From Bacteriovoracaceae bacterium (lineage in GTDB: Bacteria > Bdellovibrionota > Bacteriovoracia > Bacteriovoracales > Bacteriovoracaceae): a DNA stretch of 64,000 nucleotides. The notes under the pieces are model-generated. The model saw only the letters and a program-made list of their open reading frames with translations, was not told the origin of the DNA and searched no databases. This document shows, piece after piece, positions 7,120-24,081 of the stretch. Positions within the stretch are counted from its first letter, which is position 1. Every line of letters starts with the position of its first letter. The translations under genes were made by a program, and so were the position numbers. The DNA lies in assembly GCA_018649885.1 (NCBI GenBank), contig JABIHA010000126.1, forward strand, positions 1 to 64,000, in the 5' to 3' direction.

Positions 7120-7234
7120 TTTTAACCCATCAAAACCAAATCCAGGATGGAATTGAGGACACATTGGCACTTAGATGCCGTCGTCCCACTAAGTATTAGA
7201 GATGAGAATTTTAAAAAGTTATGAGGAGAATTTC

Positions 7235-10200
7235 ATGTTACGTCGCCAATTCCGCGGGACCCTGTCCTACACAGTTATGCTTACTACACTTTTATCAATA
7301 CTTTCATTCAACCAAGCTCTCTTTGCCCAACATGGTAATGGGAATCACGGTGGTGGAAACCATGGTAATGGAAACCATGGCAATGGAAACCACAATGGTG
7401 GATCCGGAGATACCTTCACCATTGGTGGCCAAAACCAAAACTGGGAAGATAGCTATAAAGGGAGAATCAACTTTAAGCTAAGTGATGACTCAAAACTTTT
7501 CGAGGCCAAGAAGATGGTTAGGCGAATGGAGAGAGAGCTAGAAGTTAAAAGCTCACAATTTGAGACTATTAAGTCAGCACTAAAAGCCCTTGAATCGAAA
7601 AAAAGTGCACAGGTGAGTAAAAGAGATAAAGCTGTTGCAAAAATAGATAGTGCTAAAGCAGAAAAAACGGCACTTACAACTCAGAAGCAAACACTAGCTT
7701 CACAAATGGCCACCTTAAAAACGCAAATCGCGTCGCTAACCACTAAAATTAATCAGCTGGCACCACAAGTTGAAGCCCTTAGACAAACAGTGGCCACGGA
7801 AAAAGAAAATGTTTCAAACTTGTTAGGCGCCCATCGTGAAGCAAAAAGAATTTTGAAGCTTCAAATGGATCAGTGTCTTGCAACTGAAACGCAAGTGGCC
7901 TGTAATCAAAAACCGGCCATCAAGCAATTAAAAATGGCAGTAAGAGAAACAAAAGAATTATACACTCAGGCCAATCTTGCTCTTGCAGCAATGAAAACTG
8001 CTTTGAAAGAAATGGATACTAAGCTTGCAAGACTTAATTCACAAAAAGATCAAAAGGTTGCAAGTAAGGCCCAGAAGAAGACCAAGCACGATGCAATCCC
8101 TGCAAAGATTGCACAACTTAATACAAATATTCGAACCTATAAGGCCCAAAAAGAGGCTGCCAAGACACAAATTCTCAGACTTAATCCTCAGATTTCATCA
8201 AAGAGGAGAAGTAAGCAACAGGCCAAAGTAGCAGTTGAAATGGCCGCATCTAACGTAGCTATGGCCCAGCAAGCAAAGCGTGCTATTAAAGATCAATTGA
8301 TATCAAGAATACTCGAGGAAAATGAAAGAGGGTTTTCCATGGGGAGAGGTGCAGGAAGAAGTGAAGGAGAAGAGCTCGCTTCTAGAAGAGGAAATCAATA
8401 CGGAGAAGCTCACGGTTTACAAGAGGGTCGTGCAGCCGGAGAAGATTTTGGGAAGCAGAGAGATTACAATATTGGAGAAAGACAAGGTGAAGAAAAAGCA
8501 AAAACTGATGCGAATGTAAACGGAAAAGCTGATGGCACAAGAATTGGTCGCTCTCAGGGAAACAAAAGAGCAGGCCAGCTACAGGGAAATAGTGACGGTA
8601 TTGCAAATGCCATTGCATCAGATGCTGCTAGAAAGGGAGCTGCTGAAGGGGCAACAAAGGGAATGGATGAGGCCATTAGTTACGGAATGAGAGAGGGTTA
8701 TAGAATTGGGGAAGCTCAGGCCATAAGTAATGAGGAATCTAAGCCACTAACAGGTAGAACAGTTAATGGACCATTTGCAGGGACATTCGCCCATTACGTT
8801 CCCGGCTATCCTGAAAATGGATCACCTCATTTATTTTATGATTCATCATATGCCACAAGGATTAGAAGAAGACTTCCTAAAACGGCATTTTTAGATGGAT
8901 ACCGTGCTGGCTACCATAGGGCCTCACAAAGAGCTTATGAAAGACTCATCGATGGAATTTACACTCAGGCAAAAGACTACTACTACGAAGAAGCTTATAC
9001 TAGAGCGCTTGAAGTTGAGTACACTGCAAGTTTTGATCGTGGCCATAGATATGGTTACGGCAGGCTATATTCTCCCAACTATGAAAGGGTTAAAGAGTAT
9101 TACAGAGGCCGTGCCTACAGTCAGTACTTATCAAGTCCAGATTTGGGTTCGAGAGATTACAAGGACTCCTATGCAAGTGCCAAGTCCTCTGCCTATAGAC
9201 AGAAGTATGCTCAGATTAAAGCTGCCTCACTTGAGGCAAAAAGAAGTGAAGTTTTTAATAGTAATAAAGCAGGACAAACAGAAATTTACAGAAAGAAAAG
9301 ATATGCTAGTGCAACAAAAACCTACAAGAACTACCCTGTCTTATCATTTGTAAAATCAACTCTTAGTGACCACGGAATCACGAAAGTTGGCGCAGCTGAT
9401 GCAAAATACCAACCAGGGGAAAATGTCTCAGTTGATATTATCATTAAAAATACAGGGCATAAGACAGCAAGCGGAGTAAGTGTAACTCTTGCAAGCGGAG
9501 AGAGAGCAACACTTCCAGCAATTGCGGGGAAAAGTACAGTCACAGTTAAAGGTGCAATTGCTACGGCCATTAGTGGTGGACAACAGGTTGGATCAACATT
9601 TCAGACAAGCTTAAGTTTAAAGTACCTACTCAAATCAAATGATTCAATTCAAGGTGCTTTTTATGATCAATCAGGCCAAAGCCTAGTTGCTTCTGGAAGA
9701 AAAAATAGTAAGTCGGTAAGTTATCCATTTAACTTGTCGATGGTAAGCATAAGGGGAGAGATCATTCTTGGGGGAGAAAATGATCTAAGTGTAAGTGTGA
9801 AAAACCAATCAGCAAGATCGTATGACGGTGATTTACAAGTAGAGCTGAATAGTTCTATAGGCGATATCACAAGCGAGTTGTCTCAACTCAGTCATTATGC
9901 AAAGGGTACGAGCTCTCTTACGGGTGCAAAAATTCTTGTTGATGGTGAAAGAAACCTTTTCTCGAAAGTTTATGTGAGTGCCACTATTAGTAAAAATGGT
10001 GTCTTACTTGGCAGCACAACTACTGATGCTGTCAAGTTAGTCAAAACTCTTTTTAAGAATAAAAAAGGCGTTCCCACTATAGTGGCCGATAGTGAGAGTG
10101 CTTATTCTGAGCTAAAAGATTTGATGGCCGAATTAGGTGGGATGGATAGCTTTGCAGTTCTAGATTTAAGTCTTGGAAGTGCCAATAAAAAAATCTTAGA

Positions 10201-10999
10201 TGCAGGTCTTTCTGGAAAAGTTGCTCTTGTCATTGATTCAAGAAACTCATCTAGTTCAATTGCACCTAAGATATCAGGGTTATTTAAAGCAAGTAACTCA
10301 TCAGTAGTCTTTGTAGATACAGATGATATAGGACTTTCTAGGGCCAAATCAAAAACACCTGGGTTTAAATCTTCTGTTAATTTTAGAGCAAAATTAGCCA
10401 AATTTGGAACTGTAAACCTTTACGCTTCAAATCCACTTAGTGGAAATGGCATCAAAAGAGTTAACGCCTTCCAGGGTTCATTAAAAGAAATTGAAAAGTC
10501 CTTGTCCCTTGCAAGACTTCTTGCAAAGTCAGATTCGGCATTACTAGAGTTCCTTGCTACAAATTTAAAAGGCTCAGCTCTTGTGAGTCCACAGCAAACT
10601 CTTCTTGCCAACACTCAGCTGGCGATGACTAGAGCTTTACAAGACATCTTGATGGCAGACAAATTGTACAACCGTAGTGCCTCGCAAGGCTTAAGAGCTG
10701 CAAGCTCATCAACTGCTATGATTATGAAAATTGCTTCAGCTGCTAAGTCTTTCGCTGGAAGTAAAAAGACAGGGGCTAATATACTTCTTCAAATAAGTGA
10801 TGAAGTACTTGATGAAGCTTTTTCTCATCATGACCCAATTGAAGATGTGGTTAGCTCAAAAATTGAGAGTGCTGTTAAAAAAGCACTTAAAAAACCACTT
10901 AAAAATTCAGACAAATATTTCAAAAAGATCATCAAGAAAAAAGATCTTTTGAAATCGGCAGAAAAGCAAGCTTACCGTTTTGCTCCCTTTGCCATCTAG
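7235..10999 (+). CDS. Large secreted protein: His/Gly/Asn repeat, long coiled coil, GxxxG helical repeats, Ig-like beta domains
   Basis: SD GAGGAG before ATG 7235; signal ending ALFA; HGNGN repeats; K/A/Q heptads; G-x3-G runs; QPGENVSVDIIIKNTG (CARDB/Ig-like). Confidence 0.85.
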   Translation: MLRRQFRGTLSYTVMLTTLLSILSFNQALFAQHGNGNHGGGNHGNGNHGNGNHNGGSGDTFTIGGQNQNWEDSYKGRINFKLSDDSKLFEAKKMVRRMERELEVKSSQFETIKSALKALESKKSAQVSKRDKAVAKIDSAKAEKTALTTQKQTLASQMATLKTQIASLTTKINQLAPQVEALRQTVATEKENVSNLLGAHREAKRILKLQMDQCLATETQVACNQKPAIKQLKMAVRETKELYTQANLALAAMKTALKEMDTKLARLNSQKDQKVASKAQKKTKHDAIPAKIAQLNTNIRTYKAQKEAAKTQILRLNPQISSKRRSKQQAKVAVEMAASNVAMAQQAKRAIKDQLISRILEENERGFSMGRGAGRSEGEELASRRGNQYGEAHGLQEGRAAGEDFGKQRDYNIGERQGEEKAKTDANVNGKADGTRIGRSQGNKRAGQLQGNSDGIANAIASDAARKGAAEGATKGMDEAISYGMREGYRIGEAQAISNEESKPLTGRTVNGPFAGTFAHYVPGYPENGSPHLFYDSSYATRIRRRLPKTAFLDGYRAGYHRASQRAYERLIDGIYTQAKDYYYEEAYTRALEVEYTASFDRGHRYGYGRLYSPNYERVKEYYRGRAYSQYLSSPDLGSRDYKDSYASAKSSAYRQKYAQIKAASLEAKRSEVFNSNKAGQTEIYRKKRYASATKTYKNYPVLSFVKSTLSDHGITKVGAADAKYQPGENVSVDIIIKNTGHKTASGVSVTLASGERATLPAIAGKSTVTVKGAIATAISGGQQVGSTFQTSLSLKYLLKSNDSIQGAFYDQSGQSLVASGRKNSKSVSYPFNLSMVSIRGEIILGGENDLSVSVKNQSARSYDGDLQVELNSSIGDITSELSQLSHYAKGTSSLTGAKILVDGERNLFSKVYVSATISKNGVLLGSTTTDAVKLVKTLFKNKKGVPTIVADSESAYSELKDLMAELGGMDSFAVLDLSLGSANKKILDAGLSGKVALVIDSRNSSSSIAPKISGLFKASNSSVVFVDTDDIGLSRAKSKTPGFKSSVNFRAKLAKFGTVNLYASNPLSGNGIKRVNAFQGSLKEIEKSLSLARLLAKSDSALLEFLATNLKGSALVSPQQTLLANTQLAMTRALQDILMADKLYNRSASQGLRAASSSTAMIMKIASAAKSFAGSKKTGANILLQISDEVLDEAFSHHDPIEDVVSSKIESAVKKALKKPLKNSDKYFKKIIKKKDLLKSAEKQAYRFAPFAI

Positions 11000-11074: not shown

Positions 11075-13387
11075 CTATTTAGCCGGCTTAAGCTTCTTAG
11101 ATTCAGAGATTTTTTCCGTCCAAATAAGAATTGCAGGTAAAAACACTAAATCGATAAGAAGCGCACTACCTAGGACAAATGAGCTGAGGATTCCAAAGTA
11201 GAAGTTAGGCATAAAATCACCAAAAATGAAGCAACCAAAACCAAAGATAAGAATAATTGTTGTCCAAACGAGGGCCGGTCCAGTATTGGTTAAAACTTCT
11301 TTGATGGCATTAGTTGGTGACATACCTGCCTTTGTTTTCTCCACGTAATTTACTAAAAAGTGGATTGTGTCATCAACCGCAATACCAAGGGCCACAGAGG
11401 CAACAATAGAGCACCCTACATCAAAGTCTTTTCCTATGAGCCATAGAAATCCTCCACCAAAAATGAGAGGTATTACATTGGGAAGCATAGAAATCATCGC
11501 CATGGGAATTGATCTAAAGATTAAGAGCATCACAATTGAAACTAGAAGGATCGCCATCCCAATGGAAGTCACAAAAGTTTCCACAATATGCCCGTTCATT
11601 TCCTTATAGAGAGGAATCTTACCCGTGATATAACCATTAAGTCCCAGCTCACTGATCTTACTTTTAATTTTATCCATATATTCCAGTGAGATTTTACTCT
11701 CTTGGAATTTCCACAAGACAGAAACTCTAAGTCCCGACTTATCGATCGTCACCCTATCTGTTAATCCCATCCCTTGAGGAAGACCGAGATTATAAAGAAA
11801 AATCTCTTGAGCAATTTTCTTTCTATCTTTTGGAAGTCGATAGAAACTTGCATCTCCCCCGTGAAGGTGCTGATTCATCTCTTTGATAGTTTGGATAATA
11901 GAAAGTGTTCTATTAACAAAGGGGATTTCTTCAAGCCATAACTGTAACTTCTCAACCTTTTGGAGAAATTCTGGGTCCATGGCCCCTTCACTTACTCCTG
12001 TATCAAGATAAATTTCCGGTCCTGTATTGCCACCCAAATTGTCTTTTAAAAAACGATTCGCTTTTCTTACTGGAACCCTTTTAGAAAAATAGCTAAATGG
12101 ATCTGAATTCACTTCACCAAGGGAGCCTAGATAGAAAAAGCCAATAGTAAGGGCCACAAATCCTAAAATTATAGATTTTGTATATTTTGATAAATAAAAA
12201 ATGAATTTATCAACATATCTTCCATCCCATCTTCTACTATTACTGGCACTTCCTTTAATGGGAAGCATAAGTAGAAGTGGAATAATAAGAAATATTGTGA
12301 GAACCCAAGCAAAGAGCGTTCCAAGACTGGCCAGAAGCCCTAAGTTAGATATTGGTGTAAGCGGAGAAGTCATTAGACTTAAAAAACCCAAACTAGTAGT
12401 GAAACTAGTTAGAAAAGTTGGCCAAAGATTTTTGGTGATACTCTCCCTGGTCGCTTCTTTTCTATTTTTACCACTTCCCAGTGCTTGAAAATAAGTGACC
12501 AATATATGAACTGTATCTGCAATAGATATGGCCACCAAGATTCCAGGCAGTGATGAGACTAAATTATTCAACTTAATATCTAGCCAACCAGATAGGCCAA
12601 AACACATAGCGATTGAAGACCCAATGATAATGAAGGGAAGAAAAATTCCAAGAACACTTCTGAAGCTTAAAAATAGAAAAAATAGAAGAAGAAAAGTCAT
12701 CGCCGGCATAAAGACAGCGAGGTCAGCTTCCATCACCTCTAAAAATTGGAAGTTAATTATCGGACCACCAGTTAGATAGAAATTAATGTCTGGAAACTTC
12801 TTTTGATATTCTCTTTGAATCTTTCTAGCACCCTTTGCTATGGCCACGTAATCACTCTCACCTTTAAATGTCGGTTTCATGCGAGCAAATACGAGAGCAA
12901 TATTAGCAGCCTTATTGACTAAAAATCCTGGTATCACCTTATGAGAAAGAGCAATCTTTTTTCTCTCGACCAAAAAGCGACTGTCTAGCTGTGCACCTTC
13001 GGGAAATAGTGCTTCGATTTCAATATCATCCATGGTGCTTTTGGCAAAATGAAAATTTGAAAGAGAATCCACTCTAATCACTTCAGGAACCAGCCACATT
13101 TTTTCAGTAACTTCTTTAATTATCTGAATTGTCTCTGGATTAAAAACACCCTTGGGATTATGGATTGCAAATACAGCACTTTCATCAGATCCAAATTGTT
13201 TTTCAAATTGTTCGAGTTTAATAATGAGTGGGTCATCACTTCGAAACCAATTCTTAACGCCAAAATCAGTTTCTATATTTACTAATCCAGCACTCAAAGA
13301 GAGACAAAATAGCAGAGAAAATAAAATACATCGTTTTGGGTTTTCTAATACAAATTTAATGATTTTTTGTTTAAACAATTCTTGCAT
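11075..13387 (-). CDS. MMPL/RND family transporter
   Basis: Two TM bundles with ISIADTVH and GIAVDDTIHF motifs and two periplasmic loops. Confidence 0.9.
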   Translation of the reverse strand: MQELFKQKIIKFVLENPKRCILFSLLFCLSLSAGLVNIETDFGVKNWFRSDDPLIIKLEQFEKQFGSDESAVFAIHNPKGVFNPETIQIIKEVTEKMWLVPEVIRVDSLSNFHFAKSTMDDIEIEALFPEGAQLDSRFLVERKKIALSHKVIPGFLVNKAANIALVFARMKPTFKGESDYVAIAKGARKIQREYQKKFPDINFYLTGGPIINFQFLEVMEADLAVFMPAMTFLLLFFLFLSFRSVLGIFLPFIIIGSSIAMCFGLSGWLDIKLNNLVSSLPGILVAISIADTVHILVTYFQALGSGKNRKEATRESITKNLWPTFLTSFTTSLGFLSLMTSPLTPISNLGLLASLGTLFAWVLTIFLIIPLLLMLPIKGSASNSRRWDGRYVDKFIFYLSKYTKSIILGFVALTIGFFYLGSLGEVNSDPFSYFSKRVPVRKANRFLKDNLGGNTGPEIYLDTGVSEGAMDPEFLQKVEKLQLWLEEIPFVNRTLSIIQTIKEMNQHLHGGDASFYRLPKDRKKIAQEIFLYNLGLPQGMGLTDRVTIDKSGLRVSVLWKFQESKISLEYMDKIKSKISELGLNGYITGKIPLYKEMNGHIVETFVTSIGMAILLVSIVMLLIFRSIPMAMISMLPNVIPLIFGGGFLWLIGKDFDVGCSIVASVALGIAVDDTIHFLVNYVEKTKAGMSPTNAIKEVLTNTGPALVWTTIILIFGFGCFIFGDFMPNFYFGILSSFVLGSALLIDLVFLPAILIWTEKISESKKLKPAK

Positions 13388-14241: not shown

Positions 14242-14559
14242 TCTTACACCTCTCACTAATTCATCGGAAAAGAGAGACTTTGATTTAGGTTTAACAATTT
14301 ATAGGTGGGGTTTTCTGAAGTTGTTTGAGTAGCAAAACAGAGTGGGATAGGCGGTTTTATTTTCTCTAAATATCTACAATCTAAGGGCCAAAAATATAGT
14401 TTGATAAAGAAATGGTGAAGACAGGGTGAAGTTTGATTATTGCCCCACAATAACGAGTGATTCCACTAGTTCCCTTGTGCCCATTTTCCCGTATAGGATT
14501 TATACTATTAGAGGGAAAGTTTACTTCGACAGTTGGATCAGAAATTGTTTAGCGAGAAA

Positions 14560-15909
14560 ATGATAGGCGGAAATTTAGATATATTGGGTTATGTTTTCAT
14601 AGCACTTTTGGGTCTATTATTTTTTCTACGTGAGAAGTATGGACGAAAAAAAACGGAAACGGATCTAAAAAATAGTATCAAGAAAAAGCAAGTTGAACCC
14701 TACACTCTTCACCCCCTAATTAAAACAGAGTTATGCTTTGGCTGTGCCGCCTGTGTCATGGAATGCCCAGAAGAAGGCGTTATGGGACTTCTTTCGGGAA
14801 AAGCAATTCTGGTAAAACCAAATAAATGTGTTGGTCACGGAGTTTGCAAAGATATCTGTCCAAATGAGGCCATTGAATTAGTTATCGGAACAAAGAATTT
14901 GCCAATTGAGATACCCAACTTAACACCACACTTTGAAACTAATGTGGATGGACTCTATATTGTTGGAGAACTGGGAGGGATGGGTCTTATAAGAAATGCT
15001 GTCAAGCAAGGGATGCTGGCCATAGAGCACGCAAAAGCACAGCTTAAAAGTCGCAATATTGATTTTGTTACGGACCATGATGTCGTGATCGTTGGAGCGG
15101 GTCCTTCTGGATTTTCTGCTACCCTTGCTTGTAAAAAAGAAGAGCTTAACTATCTTTGCCTTGAACAAGAAGAATTTGGTGGGGCCATAAGACACTACCC
15201 TAGACAAAAAATTGTCATGAGCTTTCCTCTTGAATTTCCGATTGTCGGGAAAATGACTTTTCGAAAAAACATTGTTGAAAAAGAAGAAATTCTCGAAAGA
15301 TGGAATCAAGTAAGAGAAAAAGAAAACTTAAATATTTTAGAGAATCATCGTTTTGATAGCCTCGAGAAAAAAGGTAATCACTTTATCATTCACACACCGA
15401 ATAAATCATATACTACCAAAGTAGCAGTTATTGCAATGGGCGTAGGCGGTACACCCAGAAAGCTTGGTGTAGAAGGTGAAAACTTAGAAAAAATATCTTA
15501 CCGTTTAATCGATGCGAAAAATTACACTAATCAAAATATAGTTGTTGTTGGCGGGGGGAACTCGGCAGCAGAAGCTGCTGCAAGTTTGAGTCAACCTGAG
15601 TTAGGCAACAAAGTAGTCCTTGTCTGTCGAAAGGACAACCTTAATAAGTGTAATGAAACAAATATCGATATTGCTTCCAGGAAATCAAAAGCAGGAGATC
15701 TAGAAATTAAATACGAAAGTATTGTAGAAAGTATTGATGAAGATACAATCACGCTAAATTGTGATGGAACAATAGAAAAGATTGAAAACCATTTTATATT
15801 CGTTTTTGCAGGATCTGAAAAACCATTTCCTTTTCTACGAAGCCTCGGTGTCGAGATTGAAAAAATGTATGGGACACCACTTAAGGAAAAGTCTGATGTT
15901 GCAGTATAA
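14560..15909 (+). CDS. Membrane-anchored 2x[4Fe-4S] ferredoxin fused to thioredoxin-reductase-like FAD/NAD(P)H oxidoreductase
   Basis: N-terminal TM; CFGCAACVMECP and CVGHGVCKDICP; IVGAGPSG; VVGGGNSA; alternative TTG start at 14533. Confidence 0.9.
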   Translation: MIGGNLDILGYVFIALLGLLFFLREKYGRKKTETDLKNSIKKKQVEPYTLHPLIKTELCFGCAACVMECPEEGVMGLLSGKAILVKPNKCVGHGVCKDICPNEAIELVIGTKNLPIEIPNLTPHFETNVDGLYIVGELGGMGLIRNAVKQGMLAIEHAKAQLKSRNIDFVTDHDVVIVGAGPSGFSATLACKKEELNYLCLEQEEFGGAIRHYPRQKIVMSFPLEFPIVGKMTFRKNIVEKEEILERWNQVREKENLNILENHRFDSLEKKGNHFIIHTPNKSYTTKVAVIAMGVGGTPRKLGVEGENLEKISYRLIDAKNYTNQNIVVVGGGNSAAEAAASLSQPELGNKVVLVCRKDNLNKCNETNIDIASRKSKAGDLEIKYESIVESIDEDTITLNCDGTIEKIENHFIFVFAGSEKPFPFLRSLGVEIEKMYGTPLKEKSDVAV

Positions 15910-16999
15910 ATATATATCACTATCAATTTTTGCATTGGTATTTCTAACAGTAGTGGGGTGTCAACCACAGCAACCTGAAGCAACCTCAGGGACTGCCCCT
16001 CTTACAAGTTTTGACCATCTTGGTATTACTGGAAATTGTAGTACTTGCCATGAAAAAGACCTGCCTGAAAAAGACCATGGTGGGAAACTAGACTGTGAAT
16101 ACTGCCACCAAGTCGATAGCTGGAAAGGAAATGTAGATTACTCACATGTCCCTTCCCCGCATTCGTGTAATCTTTGTCACGAAGTTGAAAGACCAAGGCC
16201 TGATCACGGTGACAAAAATGATTGCATTCTTTGCCACAAAACCAAATCATGGGGAAAAGAAGTTTTCTTTGAACATACCCCCAAGCCTACAAGTTGTTCC
16301 ACCTGTCATACAATTGATAGACCCGACAAAAATCACGGTGCTCAAAATGATTGCGTTCTTTGTCATCAAACAAAAAAAGGGGAAAAAGAAATCGACTTCG
16401 AGCACAATCCCAAACCTGCAAGCTGTACGGCATGCCATGAAGCAGAAAGACCCGACAAAGATCATGGCAATAAACTTGGATGTGTAGATTGTCATCAAAC
16501 GGCCTCATGGGAGAAAGATGCCATATACCACCACACTCCACGACCTAGTAGCTGCAGTCAATGTCACGTAAAAGACAGACCGGCTGCAAATCACGGTCTT
16601 GCAATGGATTGCACAAGCTGTCATAAAACCGATAACTGGGGTAAAGAGCAATTCTACGCCCACGCACCGATTCCAAATAGCTGTACTGAATGTCATGAAG
16701 GACAAAGGCCTAGTAGAACGACCTATCCAGGGCCAAGCAAAGGAAAGCAAGAAGGTCATTATAATAATACAGATTGTCTAGGTTGCCATAAGACTGAAGC
16801 AAAAGATGATAAGTGGATTTTTGATCATGGTGGTGCAAAAGACAAAAATATTAAGTACTGCCTTCCATGTCACTATGATGGCGGCTGGAAAAAACATGGA
16901 ATATTTGGAAGTATCGGAGGCTTCTATAAAGATAGTGGTAAATGTTATGACTGCCACAACATAAGAAAGAGTTGGGAAGAAGGTCCGAAAAAGAAATAA
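15896..16999 (+). CDS. 14-heme c-type cytochrome lipoprotein
   Basis: ATG 15896 with SD AAGGA overlapping upstream gene; lipobox VVG-C; 14 CxxCH counted. Confidence 0.92.
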   Translation: MLQYKYISLSIFALVFLTVVGCQPQQPEATSGTAPLTSFDHLGITGNCSTCHEKDLPEKDHGGKLDCEYCHQVDSWKGNVDYSHVPSPHSCNLCHEVERPRPDHGDKNDCILCHKTKSWGKEVFFEHTPKPTSCSTCHTIDRPDKNHGAQNDCVLCHQTKKGEKEIDFEHNPKPASCTACHEAERPDKDHGNKLGCVDCHQTASWEKDAIYHHTPRPSSCSQCHVKDRPAANHGLAMDCTSCHKTDNWGKEQFYAHAPIPNSCTECHEGQRPSRTTYPGPSKGKQEGHYNNTDCLGCHKTEAKDDKWIFDHGGAKDKNIKYCLPCHYDGGWKKHGIFGSIGGFYKDSGKCYDCHNIRKSWEEGPKKK

Positions 17000-17136
17000 A
17001 GAAGTTTATTCAAAAGTAAATTGAGTGATTAGCCTAATTTAATTTATGCATGCGTATTATTTTGTAAAAAGTTCTATTGAAATTATTTTCAATGGGGTTT
17101 TGATATTTTTATTTTTAAAAAAGAATTGGAAAAAAC

Positions 17137-17180
17137 GTGAACAAAGTCACCGTTGCCAAAGAGTTCAAAAACGATACTCT
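17137..17180 (+). promoter_or_regulatory. Possible Crp/Fnr-family site abutting a sigma-70-like promoter
   Basis: GTGA-ACAAAG-TCAC (17137-17150), then TTGCCA-16 nt-TACTCT upstream of ATG 17199. Confidence 0.3.
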
Positions 17181-17198
17181 ATTGTGGGAAAAAAATAG

Positions 17199-19316
17199 AT
17201 GAATCTATTTAAAATATATTTCACAATTCTATTTACCTTACTGGTAACTATCAGCTGCCAGCCAGAGCAACCTGAAGCAACAACTGGTACTGCCCCTCGT
17301 ACAAATTTTGATCACGCAGGCCTCTCAACAAATTGTACAATTTGTCACACCAAAGATATTCCCGAAAAAGGACACGGAGAAAACCTAGGTTGTGAAAACT
17401 GCCACAACATAAAAAGCTGGACTCAAAACACAACTTTCTCTCACGTTCCCTATCCTAAAACCTGCAGCCAATGTCATGACTATGAAAGGCCAAGCCCAGA
17501 GCATGGTGAAAAAAATGATTGCATTCTTTGCCACAAAACAAGCTCCTGGAAAAGACAAACCTTCTATTCCCATGAACCAAGACCCGCAAGCTGCGTGGGT
17601 TGCCATGACACAAAAAGGCCAAACCCCGACCACGGAGGCAAACTCGATTGTGCCAGCTGCCACCAAGTGGTTTCATGGGAGAAAGAAATTTCCTTTGGCC
17701 ATGACCCCAAACCTACAAGCTGCCTGACCTGCCATGAACAGAGCAGACCAGATGCTGAGCACGGTGGAAAGCTTGGTTGTGTAAATTGCCATCAAACTGA
17801 TTCATGGGAAAAAGATATATCCTTTGCTCACGAGCCCAAACCTACCAGTTGCCTTGTATGCCATGAAACAAAAAGACCTGATCCTGACCACGGTCAAAAA
17901 CTCGGCTGTGTCAGTTGTCACCAAACAAACTCCTGGAAAAAAGAGATCTCCTACAACCATGATCCCAAACCCACTAGTTGTCTTGCCTGCCACGAAAGTA
18001 AAAGGCCTGTGCCAGACCATGGAAATAAACTCGGCTGTGTCAGTTGTCATCAGACAACTTCATGGGAAAAAGACATCGCCTTCTCACACGTACCTAAACC
18101 TACAAGTTGTCTCGCCTGTCATGAGACGAAACGTCCGGATCCTGATCACGGAAATAAACTCGGCTGTGTCAGCTGTCACCAAACAAGCTCATGGGATAAA
18201 GAAATTTCCTACGCTCACGACCCCAAGCCCGCAAGTTGCCTTGCCTGTCACGAGACGAAACGTCCAGACCCTGATCACGGAGAAAAACTTGGTTGTGTGA
18301 ATTGCCATCAAACAAGTTCATGGGAAAAAGAGATTTCTTACAATCACGATCCCAAACCGACATCATGCTTGAGTTGTCATGAAACTAAACGTCCCGACCC
18401 AGATCACGGTCAAAAGCTTGGTTGTGTTAATTGTCACCAAACAAGTTCATGGGAAAAAGAGATTTCTTACAACCACGATCCCAAACCGACATCATGCTTG
18501 AGTTGTCACGAAACTAAACGTCCCAACCCAGACCACGGTCAAAAACTTGGATGTGTTAACTGCCACCAAACTTCGTCTTGGAACGAGGACATCACTTACA
18601 GTCATGACCCCAAGCCCACAAGTTGCCTTACCTGCCACGAGACAAAAAGACCTGATCCAGACCATGGAGACAAACTTGGTTGTATTAGCTGTCATCAAAC
18701 AAGCTCATGGACGGAGGGTGTCTCATACAATCACGATCCCGCACCTACTAGCTGCCTTACATGTCATGAAAGCAATAGACCAGATCCTAATCACGGAGAT
18801 AAATTAGGCTGTATCAATTGCCATCAAACTTCATCATGGACTAAAAATATCAATTACAACCACAAACCAAAACCTACGAGCTGCACCAATTGTCATGAAG
18901 CTGAACGCCCCGATAGTGACCATGGAAACAAGCTAGGATGTGTCAGTTGCCATTCAACGAGTAGCTGGGGAAGTGATTTATCTTATGCCCACAACCCCAC
19001 TCCAAATAGCTGCACTGACTGCCATGAGGGCCAAAGACCAAGTGATACCACCTACCCAAAACCAAGTAAGGGAACTCAAGAAGGCCACTACATCGGTACA
19101 GATTGTTTTGATTGCCATAAAACTAAGACCAATAAAGGTAAATGGAACTTTGATCACGTCGATGCCAAAAATAATAAAATAAAATACTGCCTTCCATGTC
19201 ACTACGACGGAGGCTATAAAAAACATGGTGTTTGGGGATCAATTGGGGGATATTATAAGGGGCAAGGAAAGTGCTATGATTGCCATACTAAAAAGAAAAG
19301 CTGGGACGCTAAATAA
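17199..19316 (+). CDS. 30-heme c-type cytochrome lipoprotein
   Basis: Lipobox TIS-C; 30 CxxCH counted; paralog of 15896..16999. Confidence 0.95.
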   Translation: MNLFKIYFTILFTLLVTISCQPEQPEATTGTAPRTNFDHAGLSTNCTICHTKDIPEKGHGENLGCENCHNIKSWTQNTTFSHVPYPKTCSQCHDYERPSPEHGEKNDCILCHKTSSWKRQTFYSHEPRPASCVGCHDTKRPNPDHGGKLDCASCHQVVSWEKEISFGHDPKPTSCLTCHEQSRPDAEHGGKLGCVNCHQTDSWEKDISFAHEPKPTSCLVCHETKRPDPDHGQKLGCVSCHQTNSWKKEISYNHDPKPTSCLACHESKRPVPDHGNKLGCVSCHQTTSWEKDIAFSHVPKPTSCLACHETKRPDPDHGNKLGCVSCHQTSSWDKEISYAHDPKPASCLACHETKRPDPDHGEKLGCVNCHQTSSWEKEISYNHDPKPTSCLSCHETKRPDPDHGQKLGCVNCHQTSSWEKEISYNHDPKPTSCLSCHETKRPNPDHGQKLGCVNCHQTSSWNEDITYSHDPKPTSCLTCHETKRPDPDHGDKLGCISCHQTSSWTEGVSYNHDPAPTSCLTCHESNRPDPNHGDKLGCINCHQTSSWTKNINYNHKPKPTSCTNCHEAERPDSDHGNKLGCVSCHSTSSWGSDLSYAHNPTPNSCTDCHEGQRPSDTTYPKPSKGTQEGHYIGTDCFDCHKTKTNKGKWNFDHVDAKNNKIKYCLPCHYDGGYKKHGVWGSIGGYYKGQGKCYDCHTKKKSWDAK
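17334..19010 (+). repeat. Intragenic tandem repeat, 129 bp / 43 aa, 13 copies
   Basis: Unit CxxCH-ETKRPDPDHGxKLG-CxxCH-QTSSWEKEISYxHDPKPTS; near-identical DNA units start at 18311 and 18440. Confidence 0.9.
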
Positions 19317-19319
19317 AAA

Positions 19320-20642
19320 ATGAAGAAAACCGCCCTTCTCTTATTTTTTCTAATAATAGCTGGACAGGCGTTGGGGAAATCCACTATTGGAAGAGTTACC
19401 TTTGGAAGTTATTTTTCAGATGAAAACTTTAAAAGAAATACTGCTGAGGGCAAAAGTAATGACTTTCTGATTTTTTCTTCCAGGTTTTATTTGAAAGGTG
19501 ATAAAGCTGCTCCCTATAATCATGATTTCGCACTAGATCTAAGGGGCAAGTACGATTTTTACGGAAAACTCGATAAAGACAAACAAACACTCCACGATGA
19601 ATATGATGCTCACCCCAGACAGGCTTATATAAAAAAATCAAGAAGATCACATGGGCTAGAATACCAACTTGGGCGATTTAGTGTTGATGGAGTTGGAATT
19701 AACTACGTAGATGGTTTGCAGACAAATTATAAATTAAATTCGACATTCAAACTTGGAGCTTACGGTGGACTCATTCCCAAACTCACAGGTGAGCAAAAAT
19801 ATTCGTTTAACTCAAAATCTAAGCAGTCAGGAGTTCTACTTTTCTTTCGCCCTAGAAGACTAGGGTTCCGCAAATATTTTTTCTCCTCTCACGGTTTTTC
19901 TATCCAAGGCTACGGCTCTCAAACAGACCGCTCATTTTTGCATTCACACAATTCATATATCTGGGGTCGCAGAGGAAGGTTCTATTCCAATATAGTGCTC
20001 GATTTTGTGCCAAGAACATTTCTTCAAAAAGGTGACTTTAGCATCTCATCTGATTTGAGCAAAAAAGTATCAGCTGAACTTGGCTGGGGGACCCATGATA
20101 ATTTGGCCATTTCTAGAAGCAAGACCAAAAGAGAGGTAAAATACTCCAATCGCTACGGTGAAGTTACCACAAAACTCAGCTATGATTTCTGGGAGTACAA
20201 TGGGATATTCATTGAAGGCAAAATCCAAAGAAGAAAGTCTGATTCTTCATACTCAAACCAAAGTACTGTGGGCCTAGACTTCCCTCGATTTCTCAAAAAA
20301 GAATTTTCCCTTTATAGTTATTTTAGCTTTAGAAATGATTACGAAAAAAAGGAATACAAGGCCAACCTCGCCCTTTCCTACTTTGCAAGACTTTGGGAGT
20401 TGTTTATTGATCAGTCTATTTCGCAACAAAACTATGACAACAATCAAGTGCTAAGACCTATTGTAGCAGAACTGGGTTGGGCCTATTTCTGGGCAAGAGG
20501 TCTCATGACCACCTTCTCTTATCAATATTCAACAAATGCCAATGTAGATATATACCAAGTCCTTTTTAAATTATCTTATCGCTTTGGCAGTAAACCAAGC
20601 GCTCCTCTAAGAGAAGGCGCACCAAAGAAGGGGCATCTATGA
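19320..20642 (+). CDS. Probable outer-membrane beta-barrel (porin of a porin-cytochrome complex)
   Basis: Sec signal; aromatic-rich alternating beta-strand pattern; last strand LFKLSYRF plus a short tail; lies between multiheme genes with an ATGA overlap. Confidence 0.7.
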   Translation: MKKTALLLFFLIIAGQALGKSTIGRVTFGSYFSDENFKRNTAEGKSNDFLIFSSRFYLKGDKAAPYNHDFALDLRGKYDFYGKLDKDKQTLHDEYDAHPRQAYIKKSRRSHGLEYQLGRFSVDGVGINYVDGLQTNYKLNSTFKLGAYGGLIPKLTGEQKYSFNSKSKQSGVLLFFRPRRLGFRKYFFSSHGFSIQGYGSQTDRSFLHSHNSYIWGRRGRFYSNIVLDFVPRTFLQKGDFSISSDLSKKVSAELGWGTHDNLAISRSKTKREVKYSNRYGEVTTKLSYDFWEYNGIFIEGKIQRRKSDSSYSNQSTVGLDFPRFLKKEFSLYSYFSFRNDYEKKEYKANLALSYFARLWELFIDQSISQQNYDNNQVLRPIVAELGWAYFWARGLMTTFSYQYSTNANVDIYQVLFKLSYRFGSKPSAPLREGAPKKGHL

Positions 20643-22579
20643 TTTCTAGACTTCTTCTTTTACTCTTAGCGCTACTTTGTACTGGACCCAATGCATGGGC
20701 CGATAAAGAAGAGGGCCTATTCAATAAATTATTGGCACCAGGGCCACTATCACTTCCTCACCACGATCTAGAAGCAATGGATTGTCTTAAGTGTCACTCA
20801 GCAGGAGAAGGGGTTCCCAACGAAAAATGCTTGGCCTGCCATAAAGAAATTAAAGAACATGTAAAACTCAAAAAATCGTTTCATGGCAATAATGTAAAGG
20901 GAAGATGTCTTAAATGCCACACTGAACACTTAGGCCGAAAAAATGACACCACAAAAGTGAAACAGAGAACTTTTGAACACAAATTAACGGGCCATATATT
21001 AAAGGGCAAGCACAAGAAAACGAAGTGTATAGAATGCCACACGACTAAAAGGACCAAAAAGGCCTTTCGAAAAAATGAACCTCACTACCTAGGAACTACA
21101 ACGAGCTGTAAGGGATGCCACAAAAAAGATGACTCTCATAAATTTAAAGGAAAATGGGAAAAACTAGAGTGCTCAAAATGCCATGGTGAAAAGAAGTGGA
21201 AAGAAGACAACCACGATTTCACTCACAATAAAGATACCAAGCACAAAATTCTAGGCGCTCACAAGAAGCTTAAGTGTATTAAGTGCCACTTACCTAAGGG
21301 TAAGAAAGAAGATTCGATCTATAAATTTGAAGGCCTAAAAGAGAAACAATGCCTGACTTGTCATCAAAGTCGCCACAAAGAAAATTTTGGCCCTAAATTT
21401 GTCAAGAAATCGTGTAATACCTGTCACAACCAAAAAAGCTTTAAGATGGAAAAGTTTGATCACTCCATCACAGGATTTAAGCTTACTGATAAACATGCCA
21501 AATTGGATTGCATCAAGTGCCACAAGCAAAGTGATAAAAAGATGGAGATCAAATCAGAGCATTTTGTGTGGAAAGGCACAAAAGCAGATTGTCGAAGTTG
21601 CCACAAGCCAACTCACCACCAAAAATTCACCAAGAAATTTGAAAAACTCAAATGTACAACTTGTCATACAACCAAATCCTATAAAGATGAGGCCCATGCC
21701 AAAGCTAACTTTGATCACGGAACCACAAAATTTAAGCTGACGGGAAAACATAAGAAAAATTCATGTAGGAAATGCCACCTGGTAAATAAGAAATCTACTT
21801 ATGAATTTAAAAATGAGAAGTCAGGATACTGTTTAAGCTGTCACAAAACACCGCATACTGAACAGTTTCGTGACGATTTTTCTGAGCAGTCGTGTAACTC
21901 TTGTCACAGGACAGAAAGTTTCAAAGATGTCCACAGAAAGGAATTTGACCACAACGAAACTGAGTTTGAATTACTTGGTAAACATCAAAAAGTTAAGTGT
22001 CAAAAGTGTCACGTTCCAACTAACAAGACATTTAAAGAATCCCATAGTTTCAAAGGAAAATTTATATTTGATGAACTGGGTGAAAAAAGTTGTTTAACCT
22101 GCCACAAAGATCACCACAAATCGGAGATGGGACCAAACTGCAGAACCTGCCACACTGAAAGGGGCTGGAAAGTCCAAAGAGATTTCCACAAAGACATGCC
22201 TTTAACAGGTGTTCACTACACCCTTAGTTGTACTGAGTGCCATTTTGAAGAGAGAAAGCTCAAAGGTCTAGGTGACCAATGCATTGTGTGTCACACCAAA
22301 GATGATATACACCTTGGTAGCCTTCCTAAATGCGGAGCTTGCCACCACCAGGAAGTGTGGGAAGTGACAAGATTCAAGCACTCCATGACAAGATTCCCAC
22401 TAAGAGGAGTCCACAGGACACTCGATTGCAATTCATGTCATGGAAGTGGTAATTATCAAGGCACCCAGTCAAGCTGTATCAGCTGTCACACCTCTGATGC
22501 TCTTTCAGTGGCCAACCCTGTACATATCATGCCGCAATTTAATGATTGTAGTAGGTGCCATAATCAATTTAGTTTTTGA
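20639..22579 (+). CDS. 24-heme exported c-type cytochrome (three-heme FxH..F.L.G.H repeat type)
   Basis: Signal ending AWA; APGPLS..H; 24 CxxCH counted; recurring FDHxxTxFxLxGKH; Lys-rich. Confidence 0.93.
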   Translation: MISRLLLLLLALLCTGPNAWADKEEGLFNKLLAPGPLSLPHHDLEAMDCLKCHSAGEGVPNEKCLACHKEIKEHVKLKKSFHGNNVKGRCLKCHTEHLGRKNDTTKVKQRTFEHKLTGHILKGKHKKTKCIECHTTKRTKKAFRKNEPHYLGTTTSCKGCHKKDDSHKFKGKWEKLECSKCHGEKKWKEDNHDFTHNKDTKHKILGAHKKLKCIKCHLPKGKKEDSIYKFEGLKEKQCLTCHQSRHKENFGPKFVKKSCNTCHNQKSFKMEKFDHSITGFKLTDKHAKLDCIKCHKQSDKKMEIKSEHFVWKGTKADCRSCHKPTHHQKFTKKFEKLKCTTCHTTKSYKDEAHAKANFDHGTTKFKLTGKHKKNSCRKCHLVNKKSTYEFKNEKSGYCLSCHKTPHTEQFRDDFSEQSCNSCHRTESFKDVHRKEFDHNETEFELLGKHQKVKCQKCHVPTNKTFKESHSFKGKFIFDELGEKSCLTCHKDHHKSEMGPNCRTCHTERGWKVQRDFHKDMPLTGVHYTLSCTECHFEERKLKGLGDQCIVCHTKDDIHLGSLPKCGACHHQEVWEVTRFKHSMTRFPLRGVHRTLDCNSCHGSGNYQGTQSSCISCHTSDALSVANPVHIMPQFNDCSRCHNQFSF

Positions 22580-23211
22580 TGAACTATAGGCATTAAAACT
22601 GCATTTATTTTGTGTATTTTTGATTCGTTAATCATTCAGTGTCCATAATTTTGGGACTAAATGTAACAAATTAACTAACTAAGTCGCATCGATGTGCGAT
22701 GAAAAAAATAAAAATTTTACTAAAATTATCTTCAAACATTTCCAACTCAAAGATTTCGAAGAAAAGAGATAGGTAGTTCACGGGCCAGCAGAAGATTGAG
22801 TTTAAGGTTTAGTCAGGTGGCGGCCCTTTTATCACGGCATAGTTTAGAGTTGCTTTGATGGTGTTTGTGATGTGGTCGCTGTGTAGTTGATATATATTTT
22901 AGAGGATTGCTTTTACAATGGTAGGGTTAGGGGAGGAATTTCATCTCAGGAATTGCTAGCTTTGATGATAGGTTTTATTAGAAAAAAGTGCTTGGGAGAT
23001 GACTTTCCATTCTATTTTAAAAAGGAGGTATGGAAATGAGATTATTTTTTAGTGGTTGTGATACTCTTTAAAACTGGCCATGTGATACTTCTTTAATATC
23101 ATTCAACGTCCATAATCAAACTTTTATTTGAGTGCCCCTAGCAGTACTTTTTGAAGCCAGTATTTGGACGGAAAAACCGTGATAAGCTGCTGGAGCACTT
23201 GGAGGTTAAGG

Positions 23212-24081
23212 GTGAATATTGAGAAAATGAGTGATGATAAATTATTGAAAAGTGTTCTACTAGAAGTGAAAAAAGAAAAGGATCAACTCCATATTGTACT
23301 ACTTCACTTGAAAGAAATTTATAGAAGGAGATTATTTACTGAATACAACTGCCGAACACTTAATGAGTACTGTGTAAAAGAGCTGGGTTATACTCGTGGA
23401 GAAGCCTATTACCGGGTCACAGCGATGAAGTTAATGGCAAATTCTTCTCTCATTGAAAAGGCAATCCAAAAAGGAGAACTCTCTCTAACTGCTGCGGTTG
23501 TGGCCAGTGATTATCTCACAAAACACCCCGACAAATCCGTGATCAAAAAGGAGGAAGTTATTTCAAAAATTGCGAGAATGCCCATATCAAAAGTAAAAGA
23601 GATTTTGTCTAGACCGCCATCAGGGCCTAAGTACCCTCCGAAAAATGAAGTCTTCCCTAAGTTAAAGGTCTCTAAAAGAGTCTTGGAACTTTTGAGTCAG
23701 CTGCAAGATCTCACAGGAGAGGATCAGACCAAATTACTTGAAGTGTCCCTTGAGAATAAATTAAAGCAAGTTAAGAAATGTGAATCAAAAGCAATTCAAA
23801 AGCCTTCTCCAACACAAAGTGCAAGATCACGGTACATTCCCCAAGTGATAAAAAGAAAAATTCGAAGCAGGGCAAACTACACCTGCGAACATGTTAGCAT
23901 GCGCAGAGGAAGGTGCACTGAATCCAAAAACCTGGAGTTTGATCACCACATCATCCCCTATTCAAAGGGAGGGAAGAATACATTGGAAAATTTAAGACTT
24001 GTATGCAAAAATCACAATACAAGACAATTTGTTTTAGACTTTGGCCCAAAATCTTTAGAAAAAATCACGCGGAAAAGTTAA
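23212..24081 (+). CDS. HNH endonuclease with helical N-terminal domain
   Basis: GTG 23212 after SD GGAGGT; CEH..RC..LEFDHHIIPYSKGGKNTLENLRLVCKNHN. Confidence 0.85.
   Translation: MNIEKMSDDKLLKSVLLEVKKEKDQLHIVLLHLKEIYRRRLFTEYNCRTLNEYCVKELGYTRGEAYYRVTAMKLMANSSLIEKAIQKGELSLTAAVVASDYLTKHPDKSVIKKEEVISKIARMPISKVKEILSRPPSGPKYPPKNEVFPKLKVSKRVLELLSQLQDLTGEDQTKLLEVSLENKLKQVKKCESKAIQKPSPTQSARSRYIPQVIKRKIRSRANYTCEHVSMRRGRCTESKNLEFDHHIIPYSKGGKNTLENLRLVCKNHNTRQFVLDFGPKSLEKITRKS

Follow-up and report, generated by a model that had tools for sequence, protein, structure and literature searches.

Predicted porin-cytochrome gene clusters of the PCC3 type encode the longest heme chains known from genomes. Their layout was published in 2017 for Proteobacteria and comprises a porin, an extracellular multiheme cytochrome built of repeats (median 34 hemes, 22-39 amino acids (aa) per heme), a periplasmic multiheme cytochrome (median 21 hemes) and an inner-membrane protein (IMP) of ~300 aa with five helices, an SGXXG motif and two WX3HX13H motifs (PMC5566968). 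Another account gives 21, 24 or 27 hemes for the periplasmic cytochrome and 10-35 for the extracellular one (PMC10734462). Examples are Slit_0867-0870 and Slit_1446-1449 (PMC8788666), and the PCC3 systems of Sideroxydans sp. CL21 carry 24+14 and 24+12 hemes (10.1101/2025.02.27.639646). Here we analyzed a 64,000-nt stretch of DNA (the window) from a Bacteriovoracaceae bacterium of the phylum Bdellovibrionota (assembly GCA_018649885.1, contig JABIHA010000126.1), in which five genes at positions 14560-22579, designated A to E, are read as a PCC3-type system on the strength of layout, motifs, heme counts and published descriptions, not of sequence homology.

The original prediction for this locus had proposed an extracellular electron transfer (EET) module of a different sequence type. 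The EET part is plausible and has been strengthened by our analysis, whereas the type is not an undescribed one: because the layout is already published as PCC3 (PMC5566968; PMC10734462), the novelty is that of a lineage-specific variant. It differs from PCC3 as described in its host lineage (Bdellovibrionota), in having its own barrel family and in a probable NAD(P)H-type flavoprotein input. Our literature search found no paper pairing Bdellovibrionota with PCC3, although the host lists in the supplements of PMC5566968 lay outside its coverage. For some Bdellovibrionia and Bacteriovoracia metagenome-assembled genomes (MAGs), such as those from lake plankton, the available text mentions EET-like genes and nothing further (10.1101/2022.03.26.485925). 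No function other than EET was found described for such an arrangement.

Gene content and integrity of the cluster

The five open reading frames (ORFs) all lie on the plus strand:

14560-15909, + strand: gene A, 449-aa inner-membrane-anchored FeS flavoprotein (Pfam, motifs)
15896-16999, + strand: gene B, 367-aa lipoprotein cytochrome with 14 CxxCH motifs (motif count, lipobox)
17199-19316, + strand: gene C, 705-aa lipoprotein cytochrome with 30 CxxCH motifs (motif count, lipobox)
19320-20642, + strand: gene D, secreted protein of 440 aa without Cys and a predicted plug-less outer-membrane barrel (AlphaFold2, fold search)
20639-22579, + strand: gene E, 646-aa secreted, non-lipoprotein cytochrome with 24 CxxCH motifs (motif count, plain signal peptide)

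With no CxxCH site in A or D, the total is 68, and CxxxCH, CxxxxCH and CxxCK sites are absent from the five proteins. ORFs, motif counts and domains thus all agree with the five co-oriented genes and 68 hemes first proposed. The genes had also been called mostly overlapping or abutting, which holds for A/B (14-nt overlap), C/D (3-nt gap) and D/E (4-nt overlap, the start of E overlapping the stop codon of D) but not for B/C, which lie 199 nt apart. Across the 5.45-Mb, 151-contig genome, scanned in six frames for ORFs of at least 80 aa, just 20 contained at least three CxxCH motifs, and C, E and B ranked as the top three. The CxxCH richness of the cluster is therefore far above chance.

The stretch is matched at ≥99% identity in four independent marine metagenome runs; one metagenome contig spans A, B and the start of C (14757-18169), and another spans D-E (19544-21827). 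More broadly, ≥65% of the sampled words occurred in seven runs, all labelled marine metagenome; one row named no study, and the others came from five named studies. This tally leaves out the possible source run. Since a near-identical stretch occurs in marine runs from no fewer than five studies, its carrier recurs in marine communities, a setting in which little is understood of electron export by aerobes. No RNA run was listed among the sequencing runs matching the stretch. Neither promoter-like signals (22 versus 19.3 ± 4.5 in shuffles) nor terminator-like signals (11 versus 8.7 ± 3.5) exceeded shuffled sequence.

Repeat architecture of the cytochromes

The two lipoprotein cytochromes share one design. 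Both begin with lipobox-like signal peptides (..TVVGC in B, ..VTISC in C), continue with a common linker after the lipid-anchor Cys and end in a common four-heme cap. Between these, B contains five 43-aa two-heme repeats, with heme spacings of 19/24 repeated and then 31/28/28 toward its C-terminal cap. In C there are thirteen such repeats before a B-type cap, visible in the DNA as a 129-nt tandem unit at 17587-18829; because metagenome data cover its most repetitive part (about 18170-18730) by short pieces only, the count of 13 depends on the window's own assembly. B and C are paralogues, with 55% identity between B and the last 332 aa of C. With 5 versus 13 copies of one two-heme unit on the same caps, they form a natural length series for studies of heme-wire conduction.

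Each 43-aa unit contains two CxxCH motifs and two further His residues, which suggests bis-His heme ligation in B and C; C has 30 His residues outside its heme motifs. Heme packing is dense throughout, at 26.2, 23.5 and 26.9 aa per heme in B, C and E, respectively. Pfam matches of B were to cytochrome c3/c7 and Paired_CXXCH_1 families, and C was also matched by Pfam.

Aligning 13 E-like proteins showed conservation of the first ~250 aa and the last ~160 aa and a middle that varies by three-heme modules, giving 24, 27, 30 or 33 CxxCH motifs (one member has 29). A phmmer search of C and E against PDB sequences gave no match at E ≤ 0.01, and none of B, C and E reached the cut-off of the HmcA family.

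A predicted plug-less barrel encoded by D

D carries a plain signal peptide and belongs to no Pfam or NCBIfam family. Its AlphaFold2 model, made from an 18-sequence alignment, had a pLDDT of 83.8 and a pTM of 0.74; after the signal helix, residues 21-423 are all-beta with 23 strand elements (DSSP), followed by a 17-residue tail. In a Foldseek search, the matches listed were outer-membrane barrels throughout (TM 0.3-0.5). VIA-align, which is independent of Foldseek, placed 22-strand TonB-dependent transporter barrels at the top (5t3r_D, Z 18.9, rmsd 4.1, 370 aligned residues), with FyuA, Cir and FptA at Z about 17 and the FimD usher at 16.4; over the transporter barrels Z ranged from 16 to 19. 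The protein had been called barrel-like on sight, and these models bear that out. The prediction for D is thus an outer-membrane barrel that has about 22 strands and no plug.

Two other identities were considered for D and rejected. A TonB-dependent receptor is contradicted by the presence of just a signal peptide before strand 1, by the absence of any Pfam Plug or TonB_dep_Rec match and by the strict pairing with E described below; the same pairing argues against a general diffusion porin. Lacking a plug domain, D is predicted to form a wide, empty barrel. The 22-strand transporter barrels are natively filled by their plugs, so an empty barrel of this size would need another occupant.

A D profile of 18 sequences found no PDB chain at E ≤ 1. 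MtrB was absent among the fold matches listed for D, though the two may share an origin. A word-indexed search recovered only 2 relatives; an exhaustive profile search recovered 182 representatives at E ≤ 0.001, of which 137 were at 1e-30 or better. Among the best 150 of these 182, all were ≤496 aa long, the entries of 89-350 aa matching the profile in part only. A tblastn search of plasmids with D gave no match.

The family shares a loop motif (DLRDKHDFF.KLD.E) and a conserved tail (..YRFGSKxxPPLRDGAPPRGxL). In D the tail corresponds to 20586-20639 (residues 423-440), where G423 and R431 are invariant in 18/18 sequences; it may serve as a periplasmic docking peptide. A complex prediction of D 20-440 with E 22-250 and E 440-646 scored 0.44. 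The two controls in which D was replaced gave 0.00 each, and the one with the N-terminal piece of E replaced gave 0.45; the prediction is counted neither for nor against a contact between D and E.

Five genomes of one family of the phylum (G043, G051, G108, G019 and G027) also match the D profile weakly and in part (E 7e-14 to 6e-5, about 120-220 positions). They sit in ORFs of 543-599 aa, which, judged by sequence, may encode a distant, larger barrel relative of D.

An FeS flavoprotein as the proposed electron input

A starts with ATG at 14560, and a TTG at 14533 is likewise open. Its N-terminus has a hydrophobic helix followed by a Lys/Arg-rich stretch, as in a positive-inside anchor. Pfam matches included Pyr_redox_3 (2.2e-37), Pyr_redox_2 and Fer4_10 among other families, pointing to a ferredoxin-type 4Fe-4S domain, with the motifs CxxCxxCxxxCP and CxxHxxCxxxCP, fused to a flavoprotein with FAD and NAD(P)H Rossmann motifs. 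A fell far below the cut-offs of the YpdA and thioredoxin reductase (TrxR) families of NCBIfam.

The cluster-binding residues C59, C62, C65, C69-P70, C90, H93, C96 and C100-P101 are invariant in 6/6 aligned homologues. The second motif, CxxHxxCxxxCP, lies at 14827-14865 (residues 90-101), and its invariant His suggests that the second 4Fe-4S cluster is His-ligated. By analogy with the distal clusters of hydrogenases, such a cluster is typical of an electron exit site.

Conserved neighbourhood in relatives and in this genome

We compared 16 D loci from species-representative genomes, two of which (L006 and L008) are near-identical. Their record labels are Bdellovibrionota-type MAGs, except for one Deltaproteobacteria; a distant record of the D and E families is an Oligoflexus sp. 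MAG. Together with the occurrence of the D family in the phylum sample given below, these labels uphold the probable Bdellovibrionota host of the original prediction. In all 15 loci that have downstream DNA, an E-like gene starts at or overlaps the stop codon of D. The synteny check that the original prediction had called for therefore establishes D-E as a conserved, translationally coupled pair. A tblastn survey of all 16 loci placed A-like genes near D in 11, IMP genes in 10, CcsB in 11, CcsA in 9 and a B/C-type cap in 7, and the loci without these genes mostly stop at contig ends. The lipoprotein cytochromes in these loci have 8-42 sites.

In two loci (L009 and L013), the genes form a tight operon of A, lipoprotein cytochrome, IMP, D and E, and the stop of A overlaps the start of the IMP gene in L005 and L006. 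In other loci, Pfam-confirmed ResB and CcsA genes occupy the opposite strand, between the gene for the IMP and D. The conduit neighbourhood of L004-L008, L012 and L014-L016 includes System II heme-attachment genes (ResB/CcsB and CcsA). Downstream of E, the ORFs in the sampled relatives' loci are unrelated.

The IMP of these relatives, a membrane protein of 282 aa, contains SGXXG and two HX13H motifs. Invariant in 9/9 aligned sequences are H97/H111 and H257/H271 (HX13H each), W253 and S133-G134-x-x-G137. This genome encodes a single homologue (37% identity) on another contig (C132:27337-28185), without cytochrome neighbours, in which the first W of WX3HX13H is replaced by H. The AlphaFold2 model of the IMP was poor (pLDDT 65.9, pTM 0.43) and showed five long hydrophobic helices at low confidence. 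A VIA search with it returned generic helical matches only (Z under 9) and was uninformative, and Pfam gave non-significant hints only (Ferric_reduct, E 0.59; DUF4405, E 0.42).

Whether the genome can mature c-type cytochromes had been posed as a check, and it encodes System II ResB and CcsA in adjacent ORFs (C10:20020-21666 and 21659-23176; PF05140 37.9 bits, PF01578 112.3 bits, both above cut-offs), which are its only copies. It also has three genes for heme-copper oxidase subunit I.

To assess how widely the system occurs, we searched for D in a sample of the phylum. Strong matches were present in 22 of 401 genomes, this one included, and five more had weak partial matches. Within the window's own family, 4 of 100 genomes encode D, and two of their loci, L023 and L024, are additional to the 16 above and carry the full gene set. 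The system is thus patchy and occurs in a minority of Bdellovibrionota species, about one in twenty of those sampled.

Comparison with PCC3 and other porin-cytochrome systems

The correspondence with PCC3, as far as it is described in the cited passages, extends to the four component types and to the order extracellular cytochrome, porin, periplasmic cytochrome. The periplasmic member has 21, 24 or 27 hemes in PCC3, compared with 24 in E and 24-33, in steps of three, in relatives. The repeat-built extracellular member has 10-35 or more hemes, compared with 14 and 30 here, and the ratio of 22-39 aa per heme includes the 23.5-26.9 of this cluster. The IMP is of the same type and lies beside D in relatives, on another contig in this genome. 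It is this match in component types, order and numbers that leads us to read the cluster as a PCC3-type system. B and C fit the description of an extracellular cytochrome in heme number, repeats, aa:heme ratio and lipoboxes, while their surface location is putative.

There are also differences. PCC3 hosts are described among Alpha-, Beta- and Gammaproteobacteria, whereas this host belongs to Bdellovibrionota, and the D family was found in Bdellovibrionota-labelled records only, bar one Deltaproteobacteria. PCC3 porins are described with up to 42 predicted transmembrane regions, compared with about 22 strands in D. An FeS flavoprotein adjoins the conduit here, as does CcsBA in relatives, and the cited passages on PCC3 mention neither. 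Moreover, there are two candidate extracellular paralogues (B and C), and the IMP gene is unlinked in this genome.

Other systems share single features with the cluster. PCC4 subgroup II resembles it in the motif type of the IMP and in having an Fe-S protein gene upstream of the IMP gene; however, as described, it has no extracellular cytochrome and three smaller periplasmic cytochromes, and its Fe-S protein is pfam13247, not a ferredoxin-flavoprotein fusion (PMC5566968). In our literature search, one paper alone, judged by the text available, joined porin-cytochrome, ferric reductase, 4Fe-4S and multiheme components (10.1101/2023.11.21.568154). The putative porin-cytochrome operon described there, ptdABCDEFG, looks unrelated but follows a similar design idea: its multiheme cytochromes and porin are encoded together with a ferric-reductase-like membrane protein, a 2x[4Fe-4S] protein and an oxidoreductase that binds FAD/NAD(P). 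It likewise comes from marine hosts, with no function assigned. Compared by description only, ptd differs in its penta-, tetra- and decaheme proteins (versus chains of 14, 24 and 30 hemes), in encoding flavoprotein and FeS protein as separate genes and in its hosts (Alpha- and Gammaproteobacteria, Nitrospirales and Planctomycetes).

The original prediction had drawn its layout from Shewanella MtrCAB and the Geobacter OmbB-OmaB-OmcB/Ext systems, while noting the lack of an MtrA decaheme pattern. That absence is confirmed: against the MtrA/DmsE family (TIGR03508, cut-off 192.2 bits), B, C and E scored 38.4, 75.6 and 52.2 bits, and none is a member. The likeness to MtrCAB is one of principle, namely a barrel-sheathed periplasmic multiheme protein with an outer lipoprotein cytochrome. 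The D profile matches no solved chain by sequence, the heme numbers are 2.4-3 times larger here and the input is not a CymA-type quinol dehydrogenase. MtrB has 26 strands, compared with about 22 in D. The Geobacter systems share the order of porin and then periplasmic cytochrome, with a lipoprotein cytochrome partner, but their cytochromes have 8-12 hemes (14-30 here), and scores against the GSU2203 family (NF041028, cut-off 325 bits) were 32 for B, 59.5 for C and 32 for E, so that none is a member.

Proposed electron path and alternatives

We put at roughly 60% the probability that the five genes form a PCC3-type porin-cytochrome conduit carrying electrons across the envelope, and the conduit probably exports electrons from NAD(P)H. 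Building on the gene content, the motifs, the predicted barrel, the linkage conserved in relatives and the heme-attachment genes, we infer a path whose protein contacts, direction of flow, surface exposure and substrate are all putative. A, on the cytoplasmic face of the inner membrane, would oxidize NAD(P)H and pass electrons from FAD to its two 4Fe-4S clusters, one with the invariant His ligand. The five-helix IMP, binding two b hemes through its HX13H pairs, would take them across the inner membrane. The 24-heme E would then span the periplasm with one end inserted in the lumen of barrel D, and B and C, fixed in the outer membrane by their lipid anchors, would receive the electrons at the cell surface for delivery to an external acceptor. 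The linkage of flavoprotein and heme-attachment genes in relatives would thereby outline a concrete path from cytoplasm to surface, one that, being linked to an NAD(P)H-type flavoprotein, would not need the quinone pool. Outward flow is favored because the donor is of the NAD(P)H type, A having both Rossmann motifs and a positive-inside anchor, although reverse running is possible. From NAD(P)H, outward flow is thermodynamically downhill by established redox potentials.

Several points weigh against this export conduit. In this genome the IMP and CcsBA genes lie outside the cluster, so it is relatives that supply the inner-membrane link. The Gln at +2 of lipoproteins B and C argues solely against an inner-membrane retention of the E. 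coli type, which leaves surface exposure putative, and the +2 sorting rule, itself of E. coli type, may not hold in Bdellovibrionota. A barrel of 22 strands may or may not accommodate a heme chain; MtrB has 26. Given three heme-copper oxidases and DNA in runs labelled marine or seawater metagenome, the host may have no need of an external acceptor. Kinship with the proteobacterial PCC3 proteins, judged from their descriptions, is putative. PCC3 itself is called "functionally unverified", and both PCC3 clusters of Sideroxydans lithotrophicus ES-1 went down on Fe(II) (PMC8788666), so that the function of the PCC3 class, too, is putative.

The same parts could also carry electrons inward, with Fe(II), Mn(II), reduced humics or a partner cell being oxidized and either A or the quinone pool receiving the electrons from the IMP. 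PCC3 was first found in Fe(II) oxidizers and modeled as an uptake path (PMC5566968), multiheme conduits of the Mto/Mtr kind are reversible (PMC10734462), and the host's three heme-copper oxidases could serve as sink. We nevertheless consider uptake unlikely: A, conserved as a partner, is a cytoplasmic flavoprotein of the NAD(P)H type, and NAD(P)+ reduction by donors at the level of Fe(II) would be uphill. The ES-1 response to Fe(II) points the same way, and no carbon-fixation context was seen, though no search aimed at carbon fixation was made. Alternatively, B and C could face the periplasm and, together with E, act as a capacitor or redox buffer for an aerobe under oxygen fluctuations, D being an accessory porin that sheathes no cytochrome. 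Sixty-eight sites of the bis-His type at 23-27 aa per heme would offer a large charge capacity, PCC3 and other giant cytochromes have been considered as capacitors (PMC10734462; PMC11495043), and a surface location of B and C is, after all, putative. Storage alone, however, leaves unexplained both the strict coupled pairing of D and E in 15/15 loci and a wide barrel without a plug, and we regard such an internal store as distinctly improbable.

The phylum Bdellovibrionota is known for predators, and the host is aerobic and marine. In this setting, the system might act as an extracellular reductase resembling NADPH oxidases (NOX), sending NAD(P)H electrons to O2, prey or a particle surface and producing reactive oxygen species or prey damage, not conserving energy. 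A and the IMP resemble a split NADPH-oxidase/ferric-reductase design with two HX13H pairs and a flavoprotein donor, and He et al. drew the same analogy for the IMP (PMC5566968). This likeness is one of analogy, and O2 reduction needs no long heme chains, which makes the proposal highly improbable in our judgment. In a bolder version, which we consider very unlikely, the cluster would be the outer part of a bacterial counterpart of NADPH oxidase, in which NAD(P)H electrons bypass the quinone pool via the FeS flavoprotein and the two-heme IMP and run through 68 c-type hemes and a lineage-specific barrel to O2, particles or prey. If true, EET in oxic seawater would serve as a redox valve or a weapon rather than as anaerobic respiration.

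Other multiheme genes and flanking features

A second multiheme cluster lies elsewhere in this genome (C40:43037-52158; L020:3038-12159), with proteins of 5, 4, 7, 4, 11, 6 and 8 CxxCH motifs encoded on one strand. The 11-heme protein matches MtrC/MtrF domains II/IV, and the 6-heme protein is NrfH/NapC-like. A family-less 404-aa secreted protein, possibly a porin, overlaps the start of the 7-heme gene. Kinship between D and this candidate porin was not accepted, with an hhalign probability of 18.5% over 63 columns.

Within the window, a 1265-aa ORF upstream of the cluster (7202-10999, + strand) has no Pfam family and weak SMC-like coiled-coil matches in NCBIfam only. Also upstream, on the opposite strand (11075-13387), a 770-aa RND/MMPL (HAE3-type) transporter is encoded, which appears unrelated to the cluster. 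Immediately beyond E, 23164-24081 (+ strand) encodes a protein of 305 aa that ends in an HNH endonuclease domain.

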